A stretch of DNA of 11,322 bases from Nitrososphaerota archaeon (GTDB lineage: Archaea > Thermoproteota > Nitrososphaeria > Nitrososphaerales > UBA57), in NCBI GenBank assembly GCA_013306035.1, contig JABUBF010000004.1, forward strand, positions 46,603-57,924, in the 5' to 3' direction. The position numbers were made by a program, and so were the translations under genes. Shown here in pieces: positions 1-9,700 of the stretch (the first letter of the stretch is position 1; each line of letters opens with the position of its first letter). A model generated the notes under the pieces. It saw only the letters and a list, made by a program, of their open reading frames with translations. It ran no database searches and was not told the origin of the DNA.

Positions 1-1
1 A

Positions 2-322
2 TTGGAATTTTGTACAGCATGTGGTGGTAGAATTTTACCGAAGATAGATGCTGAAGGAAAAAGAATTTCTGCATGTGTTGAATGTGGTAAAGAAATGGAT
101 ACTGATATTAAATCTGTACAACAACTCGATGAGAATAATAAAATTACAATTAAAGATGAAAAAAATGATATTCAATCATTACCAATTGAGAAAGAACCAT
201 GTTCAAAATGTGGTAATGAAGAAGCTTATTCATGGCAGAGACAAACCAGAAGTGGAGACGAACCTGCTACTAGATTCTACCGTTGTGTTAAATGTGAACA
301 CACATGGAGAGAATATTCTTAA
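2..322 (+). CDS. tfs: Transcription factor S (TFS; TFIIS / RNA polymerase subunit M-type zinc-ribbon protein), 106 aa, apparent TTG start at 2
   Basis: N-terminal C4 zinc ribbon (CTACGG...CVECG). C-terminal TFIIS-type zinc ribbon (CSKCGN...CVKCEH) with the acidic-loop motif QTRSGDEPATRFYRC. Length is typical of archaeal TFS. The MEFC N-terminus matches the usual family start, so the TTG at 2-4 is probably the real start even though the window begins at 1. Confidence 0.85.
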   Translation: MEFCTACGGRILPKIDAEGKRISACVECGKEMDTDIKSVQQLDENNKITIKDEKNDIQSLPIEKEPCSKCGNEEAYSWQRQTRSGDEPATRFYRCVKCEHTWREYS

Positions 323-325
323 TAA

Positions 326-333
326 CTTATAGA
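326..333 (+). promoter_or_regulatory. TATA-like box (CTTATAGA) for the PCNA gene
   Basis: A/T-rich TATA-like element centred about 25 nt upstream of ATG 355, the canonical archaeal TATA-to-start distance for a leaderless or very short-leader mRNA. An AAGTGA Shine-Dalgarno (SD)-like element (344-349) also sits 5 nt before ATG 355. Confidence 0.35.
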
Positions 334-354
334 TACAAATATTAAGTGAATGCT

Positions 355-1113
355 ATGAGTTTTGTTGCAAAAACCAAATCACCTGCCGAATGGAAATTGA
401 TAATGAATGTAGTTTCCACTATAGTTGAAGAACCTAGTTTTGAAGCAAATGCGGAAGGGATACAATTTAGAGGAATGGATCCATCACATGTTGCTATGAT
501 TGATTTAAATTGGCCAAATGCATCATTTGAAAAATACGAATGTGACAAAGAATTCAAGTTGACTTTGAGAATTGAGGAATTGTCTAAATTGATAAAGAGA
601 GCAAAACAAAATAATAGTATATCTATATCTGCAGAAGATGACGAATATTTAATTGTTAAATTAGAGAATGGTCGTAAAAGAGAGTTTCAAATTCGTTTAA
701 TTGAGAGTTCTCAGAGCCCACAACAAGTACCAAAATTAGCATTAGATTCTAAGATTGTAATAGATAAAGGAGTTTTTGAAGATACATTAAATGACGTAGG
801 AGCAGTAGCAGATCATATTACCATTGAAACTAATAATGACGAAATAAAGTTCATTGGAAATGGAGACGCAGGAAAGGCAGAAATTACATTAAATAAATCA
901 GACGAGGGAGTATCCGAAATAAGTTCAAAAGTAGAAAGTAAGGCAACTTATAGCTTACAGTATTTGTTAAGTATTCTAAAAGCAATAGGAACCACAGCTG
1001 AAACAATTAGCATTGAATATTCTAATAAAATGCCATTTAAAATTGAATTTAGATTGGGTGAAGTAGGCGGATACATTAATTTTTATCTTGCACCAAGAAT
1101 TGACGATAGATAA
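355..1113 (+). CDS. pcn: DNA polymerase sliding clamp PCNA (252 aa from ATG 355; the ORF track opens at an in-frame GTG at 346)
   Basis: Translation (FVAKTKSPAEWKLIMNVVSTIVEEPSFEANAEGIQFRGMDPSHVAMIDL...) has the length and N-terminal pattern of archaeal PCNA. It lies next to tfs. ATG 355 is preferred over GTG 346 because of TATA and SD spacing. Confidence 0.9.
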   Translation: MSFVAKTKSPAEWKLIMNVVSTIVEEPSFEANAEGIQFRGMDPSHVAMIDLNWPNASFEKYECDKEFKLTLRIEELSKLIKRAKQNNSISISAEDDEYLIVKLENGRKREFQIRLIESSQSPQQVPKLALDSKIVIDKGVFEDTLNDVGAVADHITIETNNDEIKFIGNGDAGKAEITLNKSDEGVSEISSKVESKATYSLQYLLSILKAIGTTAETISIEYSNKMPFKIEFRLGEVGGYINFYLAPRIDDR

Positions 1114-1118
1114 TAGAC

Positions 1119-1145
1119 TTTTATATCGGAAAAATTTTTATAAAT
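1119..1145 (+). promoter_or_regulatory. Two TATA-like boxes (TTTTATAT 1119-1126; TTTTTATAAAT 1135-1145) upstream of the QueT-family gene
   Basis: These are the only strong TATA-like elements in the PCNA-QueT spacer. The first predicts a transcription start near 1147-1150, the second near 1164-1167. Either start leaves a 40-58 nt untranslated leader before ATG 1207. Confidence 0.35.
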
Positions 1146-1148
1146 TAA

Positions 1149-1206
1149 GCGGGTGAATGGGACATCTCGTCCGTTCCGCTATAGAAACCCCGGTAAGAGA
1201 TGTAAA
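1149..1206 (+). promoter_or_regulatory. GC-rich structured 5' leader, a candidate cis-regulatory RNA or riboswitch-like element, upstream of the QueT-family gene
   Basis: 30 of 54 nt are G+C in 1149-1202, against very AT-rich flanks. Nested helices are possible: GCGG/CCGC and GGAC/GUCC. The hairpin loop CAUCUC (1163-1168) is complementary to GAGAUG (1197-1202), the SD-like element 4 nt before ATG 1207. See finding. Confidence 0.3.
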
Positions 1207-1702
1207 AATGGATTCAAAACAAATAGCATTAATATCAATATTTGCAGCATTGTATGCAATTGGAGTAGTTTTTTTAGCTCCTTTTAGTTATGGACTAGTT
1301 CAAGTAAGAATTGCCGATGCACTATTACCACTTTCCATTGTGTTTGGAATGCCAGCAGTAATTGGTTTGTCGTTAGGTACATTTATAGCAAATATATTAA
1401 ATCCAACAGGAAATCTAGGACCTATTGATATTTTTGGAGGCACTGTCACGAATTTTATTGCAACATTTGTAGCATGGAAGATATGTGGAAGTAACAAAGT
1501 GCCGTTTATAGTCGGTATTGGTTGTCAGATTGTTATTGTTTCTGTGATTGTAGGAACATATCTTTCATATTTACTTGGATCTACTCTGATCGTGGGAATA
1601 GGTTATTTGTTTATAGGAACTTTTCTTGCAGTTGGAATACTTGGATCAGCATTAGTTGTAATAATAAAAAATCGTGTAGAGGCAATTGGAATTAAAAGCT
1701 AA
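1207..1702 (+). CDS. queT: QueT-family (queuosine-precursor ECF-type S component, COG4708-like) integral membrane protein, 165 aa from ATG 1207 (the ORF track opens at ATG 1157)
   Basis: Multi-TM protein with QueT-like motifs: AALYAIGVVFLAPFSYGLVQVRIADALLPL and GTFIANILNP...IDIFGGTVTNF. MDSKQIALISIF is a typical family N-terminus directly preceding TM1. An AAGAGATG SD-like element lies 4 nt upstream of 1207. Confidence 0.7.
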
Positions 1703-2553
1703 ATAATTTGAAGCGAAAAATTAATAGATTTACTTGAATGGGTAAGTGCACCCATCGATATAATATCTACGCCAGTTGATGCGTAATTTTGGAGATTAGA
1801 CATAGTAATACCGCCAGAAGCTTCAGTGAGTGGGATTTTTTGTGAAATTGATTTTATTTTATTCATAAATTTTAGAATATCTTCAGGTTGCATATTATCA
1901 AGTAATATAATATCAATATCGAGATTAATTGCTTTCATAGCAGATTCCAAAGAGTCAACTTCAAGTTCAATTTTTTTACTTGAACCAATCTGATTTCGAA
2001 CTGAGCTAATACTTTTTTGTAGATTATTAATTAATTTAGAATGATTATCTTTAATGAGAATCATTTCATTGAGATCGTATCTATGTGGAAGGCCTCCGCC
2101 AACTATAACAGAATATTTTTCGTATTTTCGAAGTCCAGGTAGTGTTTTTCTAGTAGCAGAAATATTTGTATGTGGGCTAATTTGTTTCGTAATTTTTACT
2201 GCATTATTAGTACTAGTGGCAATACCACTCATATGTCCAAGAAGATTTAATGAAACGCGTTCAGATAATAAAATTGATTTTGACAATCCATTTAATTTTA
2301 CTATTTGAGAATTATCACTGAAGGAATTTCCGTCCTGAAATAACCAATTGGATTCAATATTAAAGTGATTAAATATTTGGGTTATTTCACTACGTCCAGA
2401 AAGAATTCCAGGTTCACGACTAAGAATTTCGGCGTTAGAGATTGATGTTGCATCTATGAATAAATCAGAGGTTATATCTCCATTAGATATATCTTCGTTG
2501 AGAAATCGTTCTATTTCTGAATCCAAGGTATCCTCTATTACAAAAGTACACAC
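1699..2553 (-). CDS. nadC: Nicotinate-nucleotide pyrophosphorylase [carboxylating] (quinolinate phosphoribosyltransferase), 284 aa, GTG start
   Basis: Family pattern EDISNGDITSD near the N-terminus, plus ATRKTLPGLR, GGGLPHRYDLNEMILIKDNH and a C-terminal GVDIISMGALTHS. Divergent from nadA. Confidence 0.9.
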   Translation of the reverse strand: MCTFVIEDTLDSEIERFLNEDISNGDITSDLFIDATSISNAEILSREPGILSGRSEITQIFNHFNIESNWLFQDGNSFSDNSQIVKLNGLSKSILLSERVSLNLLGHMSGIATSTNNAVKITKQISPHTNISATRKTLPGLRKYEKYSVIVGGGLPHRYDLNEMILIKDNHSKLINNLQKSISSVRNQIGSSKKIELEVDSLESAMKAINLDIDIILLDNMQPEDILKFMNKIKSISQKIPLTEASGGITMSNLQNYASTGVDIISMGALTHSSKSINFSLQII

Positions 2554-2605
2554 AAAATATAAAACAAGCGAATCATTGCTTCATATTGGTATAAATAAAA
2601 GGTGA

Positions 2606-3571
2606 ATGATTATAACACAAATAAATACATCAGAAATTAATTTTCGAGAGGCAATTAATGAGTTAAGGGAAGAAAAGAATGCTCTGATTTTATCGCACAA
2701 TTATCAGATACCAGAGATACAGGACTTGGCGGATGTAGTTGGAGATTCGCTTAATCTCTCATTACAAGCTTTAAAGTCGGACAAAGATTTGATTGTATTT
2801 TGTGGTGTGAATTTCATGGCTGAAACGGCTTCGATTTTAGCTCCTAACAAGAAAGTAGTAATTCCTGATTTAAAGGCAGGTTGCTCATTGGCAGACACAA
2901 TTAATGTTCAACAATTACATGAATGGAAAGATAAACACCCAAACGCGGTAGTCGTTTCATACATAAATACTTCTGCGGCGATTAAAGCAGAAAGCGATTA
3001 TTGTTGTACGTCATCAAATGCAGTGAAAGTGGTTAAAGAAATTCCTCAGAACAAAGAGATTTTATTTTTACCAGATTTATTTCTTGGTGCATATATTGAG
3101 AATATGACGGGAAGGAAAATGCATATTTGGCCAGGTGAATGTCATGTACATGCAAAACTGACAGCAAATGAGATTAATACAATGAAGAATGATCTTCCAG
3201 ATGCCGATTTTCTTGTTCATCCAGAATGTGGTTGTGTTTCTAACATACTGTATGAATTATCTGAAGGAAACATAAAAAATGACAATACAAAAATATTATC
3301 AACAGATGGAATGATAAAATATGCAAATCAATCTAATGCGAAGGAATTTGTAGTAGCAACAGAAACAGGAATTTTGCATCAATTACAGAAACAAAATCCA
3401 GAGAAAAAATTTCATCCTGTTAAAGATGATGCAGTATGTGAATATATGAAGATGATTACACTGGAGAAATTATACAGATCTATAAATGAAGAAATTTATG
3501 AAGTAAAAGTTCCTGAAGAAATTGCAAAAAGAGCGATCAAACCAATAACTAGGATGATAAACACAATATAA
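2606..3571 (+). CDS. nadA: Quinolinate synthase NadA, 321 aa
   Basis: NALILSHNYQIPEIQDLADVVGDSLNLS and VFCGVNFMAETA are typical NadA N-terminal motifs. Conserved Cys residues are present for the Fe-S cluster. Paired divergently with nadC. Confidence 0.9.
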   Translation: MIITQINTSEINFREAINELREEKNALILSHNYQIPEIQDLADVVGDSLNLSLQALKSDKDLIVFCGVNFMAETASILAPNKKVVIPDLKAGCSLADTINVQQLHEWKDKHPNAVVVSYINTSAAIKAESDYCCTSSNAVKVVKEIPQNKEILFLPDLFLGAYIENMTGRKMHIWPGECHVHAKLTANEINTMKNDLPDADFLVHPECGCVSNILYELSEGNIKNDNTKILSTDGMIKYANQSNAKEFVVATETGILHQLQKQNPEKKFHPVKDDAVCEYMKMITLEKLYRSINEEIYEVKVPEEIAKRAIKPITRMINTI

Positions 3572-3595
3572 TCGTGTTAGTATTGGTGAGATAAT

Positions 3596-5045: not shown

Positions 5046-5990
5046 TTATCCTACTGTAATAACTTTGCTTTGAGTTAGGGAGAGCGGATTTTTATCTGCG
5101 AGATTATCAACTGCGACTACTTCAATTTTAAATTGTCCGGCATAGGTAGGAGTCCAGCTATTGCCAAGTGTTGCCGATTTTCCTGCGTCGACTTGTATAT
5201 TAAATACAAAGATTTCAGTAATAAATTCGCCAGTATCGGCATCTGTGATAGTAGCAAGCCAAGAAGTGGTTATTCGTTCATCAGAAATATTTGTGATTTC
5301 TGTCTCAATAGTAATAGATTCGCCAATTGGAGTTGGATCAAGAATAGGAATTAATGAGGTACCGTATACTAATATTATTTCACCCAATGCGATTTTTTCA
5401 TCTATTGCTGCTGCAGGTTCAGGATCTGGTGCAGGGTCTGCTGCTGCAGGTTCAGGATCCATTGGCATAGCAGGGTTAGCTGGTGGGCTTTCTACGGTTA
5501 ATAATTCATTTATTCTTTCGTTTGCATTTGTAAGATCTGCTTGAATATCTATGAGTTCATTCTGTAAATCTTCAATGGTTTTTTCATAAGTATTAAATTT
5601 ATTTGTACTTTTTAGAAGTTCTCTGTTAATTTCGTCGAGATTGTTCTGTGTTTTGGCAAGTAAATCTTTAGTTTCATCAAAACTAGTCAATCTGCCTTTA
5701 AGAATAAGAATTTCGGAATTTGCTTGATCGAGATTAGTTTGTAATTTACTTAATTTGTCATTATTTGATTTATCGATAGGAATTTCAATAGGAACAGGCT
5801 CTGAGTTATCTGTAAATAATTGTGCGGCGCCATATCCAAGTGCTATGCCGATCAGCAAACCAACAACGGCAAAAACAATCTTCGGAGATATTGTGCTAGA
5901 CTCGTCGGTGTTCTGTGTACTATTTAAAGTGTTTTCTTCATTTTCAGGTGCTCTTTCGTAAGTAGAGGGATCATATCCCATTATTATCAA
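5046..5990 (-). CDS. Hypothetical single-pass membrane protein: short N-terminal tail, one TM helix, long coiled-coil stalk, Pro/Ala-rich linker, C-terminal beta-rich CARDB/Ig-like domain (TTG 5990 or, more likely, ATG 5981)
   Basis: TM segment IVFAVVGLLIGIALGYGAAQLF. Heptad-like region from LSKLQTNLDQANSEILILK to TNANERINELL. Linker PPANPAMPMDPEPAAADPAPDPEPAAA. The C-terminal ITIETEITNISD...VDAGKSATLGNSWTPTYAGQFKIEVVAVDN resembles CARDB-type domains. Its stop codon lies 15 nt upstream of the yjbQ-like start on the same strand. Confidence 0.7.
   Translation of the reverse strand: MIIMGYDPSTYERAPENEENTLNSTQNTDESSTISPKIVFAVVGLLIGIALGYGAAQLFTDNSEPVPIEIPIDKSNNDKLSKLQTNLDQANSEILILKGRLTSFDETKDLLAKTQNNLDEINRELLKSTNKFNTYEKTIEDLQNELIDIQADLTNANERINELLTVESPPANPAMPMDPEPAAADPAPDPEPAAAIDEKIALGEIILVYGTSLIPILDPTPIGESITIETEITNISDERITTSWLATITDADTGEFITEIFVFNIQVDAGKSATLGNSWTPTYAGQFKIEVVAVDNLADKNPLSLTQSKVITVG
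5407..5459. repeat. Perfect 20-nt direct repeat (gctgctgcaggttcaggatc at 5407-5426 and 5440-5459, period 33 nt) inside the Pro/Ala linker coding region
   Basis: Read directly from the sequence. On the coding (minus) strand it encodes the duplicated DPEPAAA peptide. It forms a local GC-rich island in an AT-rich gene. Confidence 0.9.
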
Positions 5991-6098
5991 TTATATCGCC
6001 GTATTACTTCTTTTATATTTTTGTATAGTTCTAAATTTAATTGAAAATATTTCGAATAAATTATATGATGGAAATACGAGAAAATAACAAGTGATAAT

Positions 6099-6569
6099 TT
6101 GGAAAAAGCGGTTTTTGGAGCAGGTTGTTTTTGGCATATTCAAGACAGGTTTAACAAAGTAAAAGGTGTATTGTCGACCTCGGTAGGTTATTCTGGAGGA
6201 GATACTAATAGCCCGAGTTATGAACAAGTATGTACCGGTAACACAGGCCATGCAGAAGTAGTTGAAATAGATTATGATCAGAAGGTTGTAACATATTCAG
6301 AGTTATTGAGTGTGTTTTGGGCGTGTCACGATCCAACTACAAAAGATAGGCAAGGTCCTGATATCGGCCATCAATATCGTTCTGTTATATATTATTTTAA
6401 TGACGAACAAGAAAATTTAGCAAGAGATTCAATGATTAAGATGGGTAAATCAGGAAAGTTTCATGATTCAATAGTAACTGAGGTGCAGCCCATAAAAGAA
6501 TATTATAAAGCAGAAGACCATCATCAGAATTATTTTAAAAAAAAGGGATCCATATTTGGGTTAATATGA
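6099..6569 (+). CDS. msrA: Peptide-methionine (S)-S-oxide reductase MsrA, 156 aa, TTG start
   Basis: Catalytic GCFW motif at the N-terminus (AVFGAGCFWHIQ), plus VGYSGG, TGHAEVVEIDYD and GHQYRS. GTGAT SD-like element (6091-6095) lies 3 nt before TTG 6099. Confidence 0.9.
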   Translation: MEKAVFGAGCFWHIQDRFNKVKGVLSTSVGYSGGDTNSPSYEQVCTGNTGHAEVVEIDYDQKVVTYSELLSVFWACHDPTTKDRQGPDIGHQYRSVIYYFNDEQENLARDSMIKMGKSGKFHDSIVTEVQPIKEYYKAEDHHQNYFKKKGSIFGLI

Positions 6570-8020: not shown

Positions 8021-9700
8021 ATGTCAAATGATATAGTAAATAGTAAATATTTTTTCTATTTATTGCGGTTCCAGGTGTTCATATCCGGCGCATCTGTAAT
8101 GGGCTTGGAATTACTTGGAAGTAGGTTAATATCTCCATATTTTGGGAACACATTGTTTGTATGGGGTAGTTTAATCGGCATTACATTAACTGGATTAAGT
8201 GCGGGATATGCTTATGGAGGAAAAAAATCTGATCAAAAAGCTTCGTATCAAATATTTTCTTTATTAATCTTTATCGCAGGAAGTTATACATTACTTTCTA
8301 CGTTATTAGCAGCAGAAATTTTCAAGATTATTTTATTATTTAAAATAGGTGAAATATATGGGCCATTAATTTTTAGTATCGTGTTTTTATTAGTTCCTAC
8401 TTTTTTGTTAGGTGCAGTAACTCCTTTTGCAATAAAATTAAGTACAAAATCGATGAAGACAATTGGACAAACAGCAGGAAATTTATATTCATTATCAACT
8501 GTAGGAAGCATTTTTGGGACATTTGTAACAACATTTATTCTTGTTCCAATAGTAGGTGTTGATATAATATTATATTCGATCAGTGTAATTTTAATAATAT
8601 CTGCAATCATGGGAATTTCTAAGCAAATCAAAGTAATTGCAATAATTTTAATTTGTATATCAATGTATTCTGCAATATTTGTACAGGCACCGTTAGCAGG
8701 AATAGTATTTGAAAAAGACACGCAATATCATAGATTACTAGTACATGATGATTCGGTAACCAATATACGAACATTAATTTTGGATAATAATTTCCACAGT
8801 GCAATGGATCTAGACGATAGGCATAGAATAGTGTATGAATATACTAAATATTTTCATTTAGGGTTATTATTCACAAATGATGCACAAAACGTTTTGTTTA
8901 TTGGAGGTGGGGGTTTTTCCGCGCCAAAGAAGTTTCATGCGGATTATCCGGAAATGAATATTGATGTCGTTGAGATTGATAAAGATGTTGTTAGTGCAGG
9001 AGAAGAGTTCTTTTTTGTTCTACAAGATGAACGTCTCGAAATAACTACAGATGATGGTCGAATTTTTCTTAGAAAAACAGATAAGAAATACGATATCATT
9101 GTACTGGATGCATATGATAAAACCTATGTTCCTTTTCATTTAATGACAAGAGAATTTCATCAACTAGTATCAGATCATTTGACAGATGATGGCGTATTGA
9201 TTTCTAACATCATTACTTCAATAGATGGTGATTCAGCAACTTTGTTTTTATCTGAATTAAAAACGATGGATAGTGTTTATTCGAATATTCATATATATCC
9301 TGTTGTATCAGAACAAGAAAAAATAATACAGAATATAATTGTAGTTGCTCAAAATAAAGAAAGTAGAGTTACAAAATTTGAGTTGTTATCACGTCAAGAG
9401 AATATTGAAGTAGATTTATCAGAAGAAATAGAAAAAGAGTACAAAGGAACTTTAGAATTTAATTCTTACAAAATTTTGGAGGACAACTTTGCTCCTGTAG
9501 AGAATTATCTTAATCCATTAACTGGGAAACAATATGTCAAAAGAATTATTTTAGAAGATGGAATTGCTATTGAAATATTAGATAATAATGAGCAGAATTG
9601 GAATAGTGAATTGAGTGTAAATCAGTTTTTATTTGTACTAATATCAGCAATTGTATTGGCATATTCGATTTATTCATATAGTTATATTGATAAAAACTAG
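8021..9700 (+). CDS. Membrane-fused spermidine/spermine synthase-like protein: N-terminal polytopic membrane domain, aminopropyl/methyltransferase-fold domain, C-terminal TM helix; 559 aa
   Basis: About 7 hydrophobic helices in the first 220 aa or so. Rossmann-type VLFIGGGGFSAPKKF, VVEIDKDVV and DIIVLDAYD are typical of the spermidine synthase family. Terminal TM segment LFVLISAIVLAYSIYSY. GAGATGA SD-like element lies 6 nt before the ATG. Confidence 0.8.
   Translation: MSNDIVNSKYFFYLLRFQVFISGASVMGLELLGSRLISPYFGNTLFVWGSLIGITLTGLSAGYAYGGKKSDQKASYQIFSLLIFIAGSYTLLSTLLAAEIFKIILLFKIGEIYGPLIFSIVFLLVPTFLLGAVTPFAIKLSTKSMKTIGQTAGNLYSLSTVGSIFGTFVTTFILVPIVGVDIILYSISVILIISAIMGISKQIKVIAIILICISMYSAIFVQAPLAGIVFEKDTQYHRLLVHDDSVTNIRTLILDNNFHSAMDLDDRHRIVYEYTKYFHLGLLFTNDAQNVLFIGGGGFSAPKKFHADYPEMNIDVVEIDKDVVSAGEEFFFVLQDERLEITTDDGRIFLRKTDKKYDIIVLDAYDKTYVPFHLMTREFHQLVSDHLTDDGVLISNIITSIDGDSATLFLSELKTMDSVYSNIHIYPVVSEQEKIIQNIIVVAQNKESRVTKFELLSRQENIEVDLSEEIEKEYKGTLEFNSYKILEDNFAPVENYLNPLTGKQYVKRIILEDGIAIEILDNNEQNWNSELSVNQFLFVLISAIVLAYSIYSYSYIDKN

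Follow-up and report, generated by a model that had tools for sequence, protein, structure and literature searches.

Positions 1147..1203 of an 11,322-nucleotide (nt) stretch of DNA from a Nitrososphaerota archaeon (hereafter the window, meaning this stretch at its full length) hold a conserved RNA element in the leader of queT, a gene encoding a member of the QueT transporter family. It is essentially certain that the queT leader of the Nitrososphaeria contains a conserved, structured cis-regulatory RNA switch. Its most likely mode of action is an alternation of two folds, a hairpin and a pseudoknot that buries the Shine-Dalgarno (SD) region, and the element is a probable metabolite-binding riboswitch. 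On balance, and with somewhat more confidence than doubt, we favor the view that the leader is a cis-acting switch on translation initiation and most likely a riboswitch of a new class. In its most likely form, this riboswitch would turn translation OFF in response to a 7-deazaguanine, for example preQ0. Unless stated otherwise, all window features described here lie on the forward (+) strand.

The gene downstream of the leader was identified as QueT through Pfam (PF06177, E = 1.3e-22), with the match beginning at the first transmembrane segment, and a protein identical to it is annotated in NCBI as QueT in a metagenome-assembled genome of a marine Thaumarchaeota. Its coding sequence (CDS, 164 residues) spans 1208..1702. 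The true start is the ATG at 1208-1210, shared by homologs of 161-164 residues, and not at 1207 as initially proposed; the SD-like GAGAUG thus ends 5 nt ahead of it. The window queT is flanked by PCNA on its upstream side and by nadC/nadA on its downstream side, and no other 7-deazaguanine genes were found in the window.

Homologous loci were retrieved via the QueT protein, without reference to the RNA. They comprised six genome loci, 80 metagenome loci obtained with a query alignment of 15 diverse QueT proteins, and look-ups of single homologs. A covariance model (R1) was built from 70 leaders, and pairing was assessed on a hand-curated alignment (A4) of 54 distinct leaders, later enlarged to 57. 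Element position 1 corresponds to window position 1147, and marine and soil leaders align without gaps across 47 positions. These, together with a linker, the SD and one further base, make up an element of about 57 nt, delimited by R1 matches and core conservation.

The R1 search detected the element in 99 of 100 sources, with scores of 44-91 bits, as one copy per locus, on the sense strand and directly 5' of queT; it was also matched in L107-L111. The element was present in all the Nitrososphaeria queT loci fetched, encompassing four close and one distant genome loci, 80/80 metagenome loci and three further clade representatives, and additional look-ups of intermediate marine QueT proteins returned no new leader types. 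Leaders are identical or almost so among close relatives, and are still recognizable where QueT identity drops to only 46-55% (L005; the soil lineages; L107/L108/L110). Between the window and L004, the 47-nt core is 100% identical and the CDS 80%. The corresponding values for core, CDS and upstream spacer are 72%, 59% and 51% between the window and L011, and 89%, 68% and 49% between L015 and L011. The identity of the core hence exceeds that of the CDS, and far exceeds that of the upstream spacer, indicating that the element is better conserved than the coding sequence.

The pairings put forward in the original prediction are all present in the window: GCGG (1149-1152) with CCGC (1176-1179), GGAC (1160-1163) with GUCC (1169-1172) around the loop AUCUC, and CAUCUC (1163-1168) as the exact complement of GAGAUG (1197-1202), to which A1162-U1203 adds one pair. 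The CCCC at 1188-1191 is likewise present, and the G+C content of the block at 1149-1202 is 30/54, with 10/54 and 13/54 in its two flanks. The comparative analysis supports a conserved, structured non-coding leader, as had been predicted, with orthologous leaders keeping a first helix (P1) and the pseudoknot through compensatory changes. P1 joins AGCGG (1148..1152) to CCGCU (1176..1180), corresponding to positions 2-6/30-34, with 97.4% of cells paired. It is supported by covariation and is also predicted by RNAalifold; pair 2-34 appears as G-C, A-U, U-A and G-U, and pair 6-30 as C-G in 44 leaders and G-C in 9-12. A second helix, P2 (positions 10-14/25-29; 97.0% paired), joins the G-rich AAUGG (1156..1160) to CCGUU (1171..1175). 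It presents one compensatory change, from G-C to A-U at pair 13-26 in L007, as well as wobble-to-Watson-Crick changes in L070, L027 and L110. P1 and P2 are parted by a near-invariant GUG (1153..1155), and the 5' strand of P2 is followed by two freely variable bases (L1, 1161..1162; GA in the window) that read GG, GA, AU, AG, UG, CU, AC or GC at positions 15-16 with no compensating change elsewhere.

The best-supported pseudoknot corresponds to the CAUCUC/GAGAUG complementarity over the ribosome-binding region noted from the outset. It involves the anti-SD strand CAUCUCGU (1163..1170; positions 17-24), left in the loop by P2, and the SD hexamer plus two linker bases (window 1195 and 1197-1202), and is paired in 97.7% of cells. 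The SD-like strand (1197..1202) reads GAGAUG in the window, GGGAGG in soil lineages and GAGGUG in L022, and its partner changes with it: pair 18 is C-G or A-U, pair 19 is U-A except for C-G in L022 (CACCUC/GAGGUG), and pair 21 is C-G or U-A. Through the linker UAA (1194..1196), A1195 pairs with U1170. At this pair (24-49), C-G accounts for 46 leaders, with U-A in another 6 and U-G in a single one; in L005 and L091, the loss of position 24 is accompanied by that of linker positions 48-49. Over P1, P2 and the pseudoknot, 97.4% of cells are paired and 7/18 pairs are changed on both sides, in 41 cells, a value reached by 0/500 shuffles; sliding the partner by 1-3 columns lowers pairing to 35-49%. 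A possible extension of the pseudoknot through CCG (1171-1173) and CGG (1191-1193; positions 25-27/45-47) is compatible with 100% of leaders, with one compensatory case (U-A in L091).

Conservation also extends to unpaired positions. G7, U8, G9 and A10 (1153-1156), A39-A41 (1185-1187) and C43-G47 (1189-1193) are the same in 56-57/57 leaders, the exceptions being U8C in L070, deletion of G9 and G47A in L091, A40G in L110 and C44A in L108. The last two blocks lie in L3 (1181..1193), where an A-rich AUAGAAA is followed by a near-invariant CCCCGG. Position 42 varies between C, U and A, and the length ahead of AAA varies by -2 to +4 nt; the putative structural role of this single strand would be to turn back along P1 and P2 so as to reach the SD. 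The whole strand from P1 to the SD (1181-1196) measures 13-20 nt and has no conserved internal complementarity. In the divergent lineage L108 (9975-9983), CAC (AAAUCACGG) replaces the otherwise invariant CCC of CCCGG and position 14 carries an A in place of G, with no obvious compensating partner found. A kink-turn or L7Ae-type motif at the GUG was considered on inspection and rejected, the flanking AG/UU giving no tandem G-A pairs.

The alignment further revealed two alternative registers for the same G-rich strand. Positions 11-14 (AUGG, 1157-1160; GUGG in soil lineages) can pair either with positions 25-28 (CCGU, 1171-1174), as in P2, or with positions 21-24 (UCGU, 1167-1170; CCAC in soil lineages). 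The latter register is paired in 97.7% of cells, with both-side changes in three of its four pairs. Together with G7-U29, U8-G27 and G9-C26, which in the window correspond to G1153-U1175, U1154-G1173 and G1155-C1172 and are compatible in 100% of leaders (U8-G27 becoming C-G in L070), it forms a hairpin of 12 pairs, continuous with P1, that is 98.1% compatible across leaders. RNAalifold independently predicts this hairpin on an uncurated MAFFT alignment. The hairpin, which we term the ON fold, excludes the pseudoknot because it uses four anti-SD bases; P2 leaves these bases in the loop and is compatible with the pseudoknot, defining the OFF fold. Positions 11-14 and 21-24 are hence common to the two folds, each of which is about 97-98% compatible across lineages, and position 24 covaries with position 11 (G/A), its partner in the ON fold, as well as with position 49 (G/A), its partner in the OFF fold. 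The two folds would interconvert. Mutually exclusive folds had been anticipated in the original prediction, and they do exist, but in these two registers; the GGG/CCCC version put forward at the time lacks comparative support. In that version, positions 15-16 vary freely, a 14-16/42-44 pairing beside the pseudoknot is topologically implausible, and no covariation was detected. The inner hairpin GGAC(AUCUC)GUCC (1160..1172), proposed as a helix, likewise turned out to be a marine-clade alternative, with 66.8% of cells paired and pair 17-23 formed in 8/54 leaders only; where present, it would act like the conserved hairpin, in that the anti-SD strand would be occluded too.

Comparison of 73 distinct upstream regions revealed a conserved A/T box, located here relative to element position 1. 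The marine box TTTTTATAT lies at -29..-21 (window 1119-1126) and the soil box cTTaAtT at -32..-26, with the same spacing observed for TTTATAAT in L110 and CTTAAAT in L108. In the window this is the queT TATA box (TTTTATAT, 1119..1126); of two TATA-like boxes previously noted it is the conserved one, and the second, at 1135-1145, is not conserved. From the usual archaeal TATA-to-start distance, transcription is expected to begin at about 1147-1150, on the first P1 base or only a few nt away from it. The fixed distance to the box places the element at what would be the mRNA 5' end, where it would constitute the whole 5' untranslated region (UTR). Location at a predicted transcription start, a common position for archaeal repressor sites, could also reflect conservation at the DNA level, as a transcription-factor operator overlapping the start. 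This is very improbable, given that no palindromic half-sites are present, that the first 55 nt of the transcript, as far as the SD, belong to the conserved block, and that base pairs covary, including those of the long-range pseudoknot. Furthermore, wobbles are abundant and strand-specific, with G-U in 45 leaders at pair 11-28 and in 53 at pair 12-27. Read from the opposite strand, they would become A-C mismatches, which indicates that the conserved molecule is an RNA on the sense strand.

The conserved block could alternatively be coding, either as an N-terminal extension of QueT from ATG 1157 or as a small upstream open reading frame (ORF). ORF 1157-1702 is indeed open in the window, yielding MGHLVRSAIETPVRDVK ahead of MDSKQ, and many database QueT entries are 176-198 residues long, beginning MGHLVRSAIETP... 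or MAPPTRCARETP.... The Pfam match, however, begins only at residue 23 of the long form, and the changes observed in the leader are compensatory at the RNA level. In addition, stops in the QueT frame occur inside or after the element in 66/76 distinct leaders, at varying places, and in close relatives (L001-L003) with an unchanged element, the 1157 frame is disrupted by a 1-nt indel located between SD and ATG. Indels within the element, of 1, 2 and 4 nt, are not multiples of three, and in the window an in-frame UGA (1154-1156) cuts the equally conserved P1 and GUG off from ORF 1157. The stops and the frame-breaking indels indicate that the element is non-coding, bearing out the initial doubts about the extension reading, and a coding explanation is scarcely credible.

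A non-coding leader implies that many public QueT gene models of 176-198 residues are over-extended. Whatever the mechanism of the element, the N-terminal extension that many database QueT proteins of this clade carry is thus spurious, being a translation of the leader. In many of the clade models (P0001-P0013, P0032, P0092, P0102 and others) the start has been called at an ATG or GTG inside the leader RNA (window 1157-1207), making them 12-35 residues too long. These false extensions look conserved (…ETP…, that is, GAAACCCCG) only because the RNA is conserved. In L091 (1001-1012), the QueT frame aligns from an ATA codon, with no ATG, GTG or TTG nearby downstream of its GGGAGG.

The two folds lend themselves to a mechanism that would operate on translation. 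Transcription would start at or within a few bases of P1. In the ON fold, P1 (1148-1152/1176-1180) would run into a long imperfect hairpin, in which GUG (1153-1155) pairs with 1172-1175 and AUGG (1157-1160) with UCGU (1167-1170), holding half of the anti-SD strand and leaving the SD region free. In the OFF fold, the G-rich strand would slip by four bases to form P2 (1156-1160/1171-1175), releasing the loop CAUCUCGU, which would form an H-type pseudoknot with the SD region (A1195 and 1197-1203). The strand at 1181-1193, A-rich and carrying CCCGG, would run back along P1 and P2, and the ribosome-binding site would be buried, precluding queT translation. A small molecule might stabilize the OFF fold, the likeliest being the 7-deazaguanine imported by QueT, preQ0 (the archaeosine precursor), or a close relative. 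Since the GUG would form a bulge between P1 and P2 in the OFF fold, it is a candidate pocket element. The strand at 1181-1196 would pass this bulge, which is exposed only in the OFF fold, and one may speculate that GUG and CCCGG form the pocket, with AAA/CCCGG (1185-1193) also providing candidate bases. Both the direction of switching and the existence of a ligand are elements of the model that we infer.

Folding energies are consistent with such a balance. In soil leaders, the nested minimum free energy (MFE) structure is the ON hairpin, at about -24 kcal/mol, and the OFF fold amounts to -5 to -8 kcal/mol for P1 and P2 plus -12.5 to -13.8 kcal/mol for the pseudoknot duplex, before any loop penalty. 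In the window, the ON-type MFE is -13.1 kcal/mol, versus -10.0 plus -9.1 kcal/mol for the OFF fold. The OFF fold is therefore slightly disfavored or nearly isoenergetic, close enough for a ligand to tip the balance, and such a relation would be anticipated if a ligand had to do so. Energies this close would equally suit a purely thermodynamic or kinetic attenuator, and all the structural evidence is compatible with any effector. The leader could consequently be a genuine structure that senses no metabolite, imposing constitutively low translation or responding to temperature, Mg2+, a protein or a trans-acting RNA. We regard this as rather unlikely, though as deserving serious consideration. 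Some 14 unpaired positions (in GUG, AAA and CCCGG) are near-invariant while the QueT proteins themselves are only 46-55% identical, an invariance characteristic of specific tertiary pockets and not required by a simple SD-masking hairpin or thermometer. Moreover, the element accompanies a single transporter family, the bacterial homologs of which are under riboswitch control (PMC11625349), and no kink-turn-like or other known protein-binding motif is evident on inspection of the sequence.

Several points nonetheless weigh against a metabolite-sensing switch of this kind. Only queT loci were sampled, so that the exclusive tie to queT is true by construction. The alignment of linker and SD was hand-curated and leans towards the model, and the shuffle control for covariation ignores phylogeny. 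With a mean column identity of 90% in A4, independent compensatory events are few, the pseudoknot having about 4-6, P1 3-4 and P2 1-2, and changes in P2 are mostly from wobble to Watson-Crick pairs. The window leader alone folds no better than shuffled sequences (MFE -13.3 kcal/mol, z = 0.32), with the single-sequence MFE selecting the non-conserved GGAC/GUCC hairpin, and the evidence beyond chance is hence comparative. The OFF architecture with P2 competes with an equally compatible extended pseudoknot that lacks P2, and we decide for neither. The marine-clade SD (GAGAUG) matches the canonical motif weakly. Finally, preQ0 or a related 7-deazaguanine is proposed as the putative ligand because the gene encodes QueT; it would fit the archaeosine pathway, but is read from the downstream gene alone.

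In addition to the element itself, we examined its distribution and genomic surroundings. No second copies were identified with R1 in the 11-kb window or in about 270 kb of flanks, among them about 225 kb of queT flanks and two 20-kb neighborhoods, where only weak chance matches were obtained, such as those in L044 (E = 0.18) and L110 (8845-8893; E = 0.12, 10.6 bits). The L110 match lies upstream of the PriX gene and contains GUGAGAAACCCGGG but none of the helices, and is probably due to chance. A degenerate DNA pattern of the element returned 0 matches in IMG/VR viral contigs. Upstream of the Caldarchaeales QueT genes (L006, L103-L106), no R1 copy was detected, even with filters off. These genes, of Aigarchaeota type, adjoin a divergent radical-SAM gene and a gene encoding a TrmB-family regulator (L006 1380-1500; L103-L106), which suggests that they may be under a different, perhaps protein-based, regulation. 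In the soil leader of L062 (76-100), the 5' part of the element is tandemly duplicated, with GGCGUGUGAGU followed by GGCGCGUGAGU, which would supply two alternative P1 5' strands and GUGAGUGG strands.

Gene order around queT (window; L007-L010; L108, L110) is kept within clades and not between them, with the RNA traveling with queT and not with its neighborhood. The marine arrangement (window 1-3571) encompasses a TFIIS-like Zn-ribbon gene, PCNA, queT and nadC/nadA. In some soil lineages queT is followed by a macro-domain gene, and in the L107/L108/L110 clade it lies between PriX, encoding a primase subunit, and a class-I aminoacyl-tRNA synthetase gene. Elsewhere in the window, the motif AAGAGATG is present before the gene at 8021, as previously noted, although 7 nt from its ATG and not 6. 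Its standing as a shared ribosome-binding word did not hold, since its occurring twice in the window is not significant, with 0.73 copies expected and 32/200 shuffles reaching two. GGUGA-type SD motifs lie right before nadA (aaaGGTGAatg) and a HIT/GalT-like gene (GGTGAgataatTTG), at window 2577-2605 and 3566-3595, indicating that SD-led initiation exists in the source organism with GGUGA, rather than GGAGG, as its core. Two adjacent minus-strand ORFs at 5049-5990 (-) and 5994-6251 (-), of 314 and 86 residues, presented no Pfam match at E <= 0.001.

Bacterial queT is the classic gene under the control of preQ1-I, -II and -III riboswitches (PMC11625349, PMC5372724), and preQ0 is the base inserted into archaeal tRNA in the archaeosine pathway (PMC5372724). 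The three preQ1 classes comprise five motifs, all from bacterial phyla, and archaea go unmentioned in a 2024 review of them (PMC11625349). The original prediction had found no convincing match between the leader and a preQ1 consensus, and scans with the 4227 covariance models of Rfam 15 were in agreement. No family, preQ1-I, -II and -III included, matched the window at gathering score. With permissive filters and E <= 10, the region at 1100-1260 (161 nt) returned only rpsL_ricks and U11, both spurious (E = 7.1), and no preQ1 family; nine diverse homologous loci returned nothing at E <= 1. The element might still be a highly divergent preQ1 member of class I, II or III, beyond the reach of these models, as it shares with preQ1-I type III and preQ1-II the downstream gene family and the overall logic of a pseudoknot, an SD held in a helix and an A-rich 3' loop (PMC11625349). 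In soil lineages, moreover, an AC ahead of the P2 3' strand recalls the specificity AC of preQ1-I types II and III. This AC is replaced by GU or AU elsewhere, and its C covaries in a Watson-Crick pair with the linker base G49, which argues against a ligand-specificity base. The element also lacks the P4-like 3'-loop hairpin and the U-rich junction for U-A-U triples that are hallmarks of classes II and III (PMC11602147), and none of the three consensus models accommodates its size (about 57 nt) and arrangement of helices. Taken together with the negative scans, these features render a divergent preQ1 member quite improbable.

A search of the literature on archaeal queT, preQ0 and archaeosine riboswitches did not yield any published description of an archaeal queT leader element. 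To our knowledge, the riboswitch classes reported in archaea so far are all shared with bacteria, in which they were first defined, and archaeal examples are sparse; the element described here was found in Nitrososphaeria only and matches none of these classes. Salvage of 7-deazaguanines (preQ0/archaeosine) in archaea has, as far as we know, been predicted but is essentially unstudied. It is an evenly balanced proposition that the element represents the first riboswitch class confined to archaea and a fourth, structurally unrelated, 7-deazaguanine aptamer class, tuned to preQ0 and not preQ1, in which one G-rich strand would slip its register by four bases, switching the RNA between a hairpin and an H-type pseudoknot that buries the SD, and which would be present throughout the globally abundant ammonia-oxidizing Nitrososphaeria. 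If true, the marine and soil ammonia oxidizers, which rank among the most abundant archaea worldwide, would possess an archaea-specific class. In bacteria three other aptamer folds regulate this transporter family, and the independent origin of a metabolite-sensing RNA for it in archaea would clearly exemplify convergence in RNA evolution. Such an RNA would also offer a direct handle on archaeal 7-deazaguanine salvage and a compact aptamer, of about 57 nt, for structural work and biosensors.

As in riboswitches generally, the element is a conserved, structured cis-acting RNA in an mRNA leader with covariation, and it presents two mutually exclusive folds, one of which controls the SD. SAM-II and SAM-V are also compact H-type pseudoknots in which the ligand stabilizes the helix holding the ribosome-binding site. 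They are bacterial, and their ligands, gene contexts and sequences differ from those of the archaeal queT element; we know of no description of a conserved alternative slipped hairpin in either. The archaeal riboswitches reported so far are likewise cis-regulatory RNAs of 5' UTRs, and the relevant passage of PMC8281238, citing Gupta and Swati 2019, credits archaea with only sporadic riboswitches of bacterial type. Among the preQ1 classes, preQ1-III (RF02680) is the most distant in layout, at about 100 nt with five helices and an SD remote from the pocket, whereas the archaeal element has its SD inside the pseudoknot and no match to this model. The likeness to preQ1-I, and especially to its type III (RF00522), lies in an H-type pseudoknot with an A-rich 3' strand after the first helix and an SD occluded by the second pseudoknot helix; preQ1-I also regulates 7-deazaguanine transporters (PMC11625349). 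Unlike the element, preQ1-I measures 34 nt, with a 5-bp P1 and a P2 of 3-4 bp. The archaeal pseudoknot helix has 6-8 bp, and two stacked helices, P1 and P2, are parted by the GUG bulge, with no match to RF00522. Furthermore, the specificity cytosine of preQ1-I lies in a UC or AC right 5' of the P1 3' strand (PMC11625349), where the archaeal element has UU (or AUU/AAU). In preQ1-II (the COG4708/queT motif, RF01054), which is located in the queT 5' UTR, the whole SD pairs with an upstream loop to make a pseudoknot helix, and control is exclusively translational (PMC11625349), as proposed for the archaeal element. That class is an HLout pseudoknot of about 80 nt confined to Bacillota, with helices P1-P4, of which the P4 hairpin is embedded in the 3' loop, and with a U-rich junction that forms U-A-U triples under ligand (PMC11602147). 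The archaeal element has neither this embedded hairpin nor such a junction, obtains no RF01054 score, and carries invariant bases of its own in GUG, AAA and CCCGG. The location upstream of queT and an SD fully paired in a pseudoknot helix are nonetheless common to both, pointing to a functional resemblance and not to membership. It is in this functional sense that the element comes closest to known systems, namely preQ1-II and preQ1-I type III.

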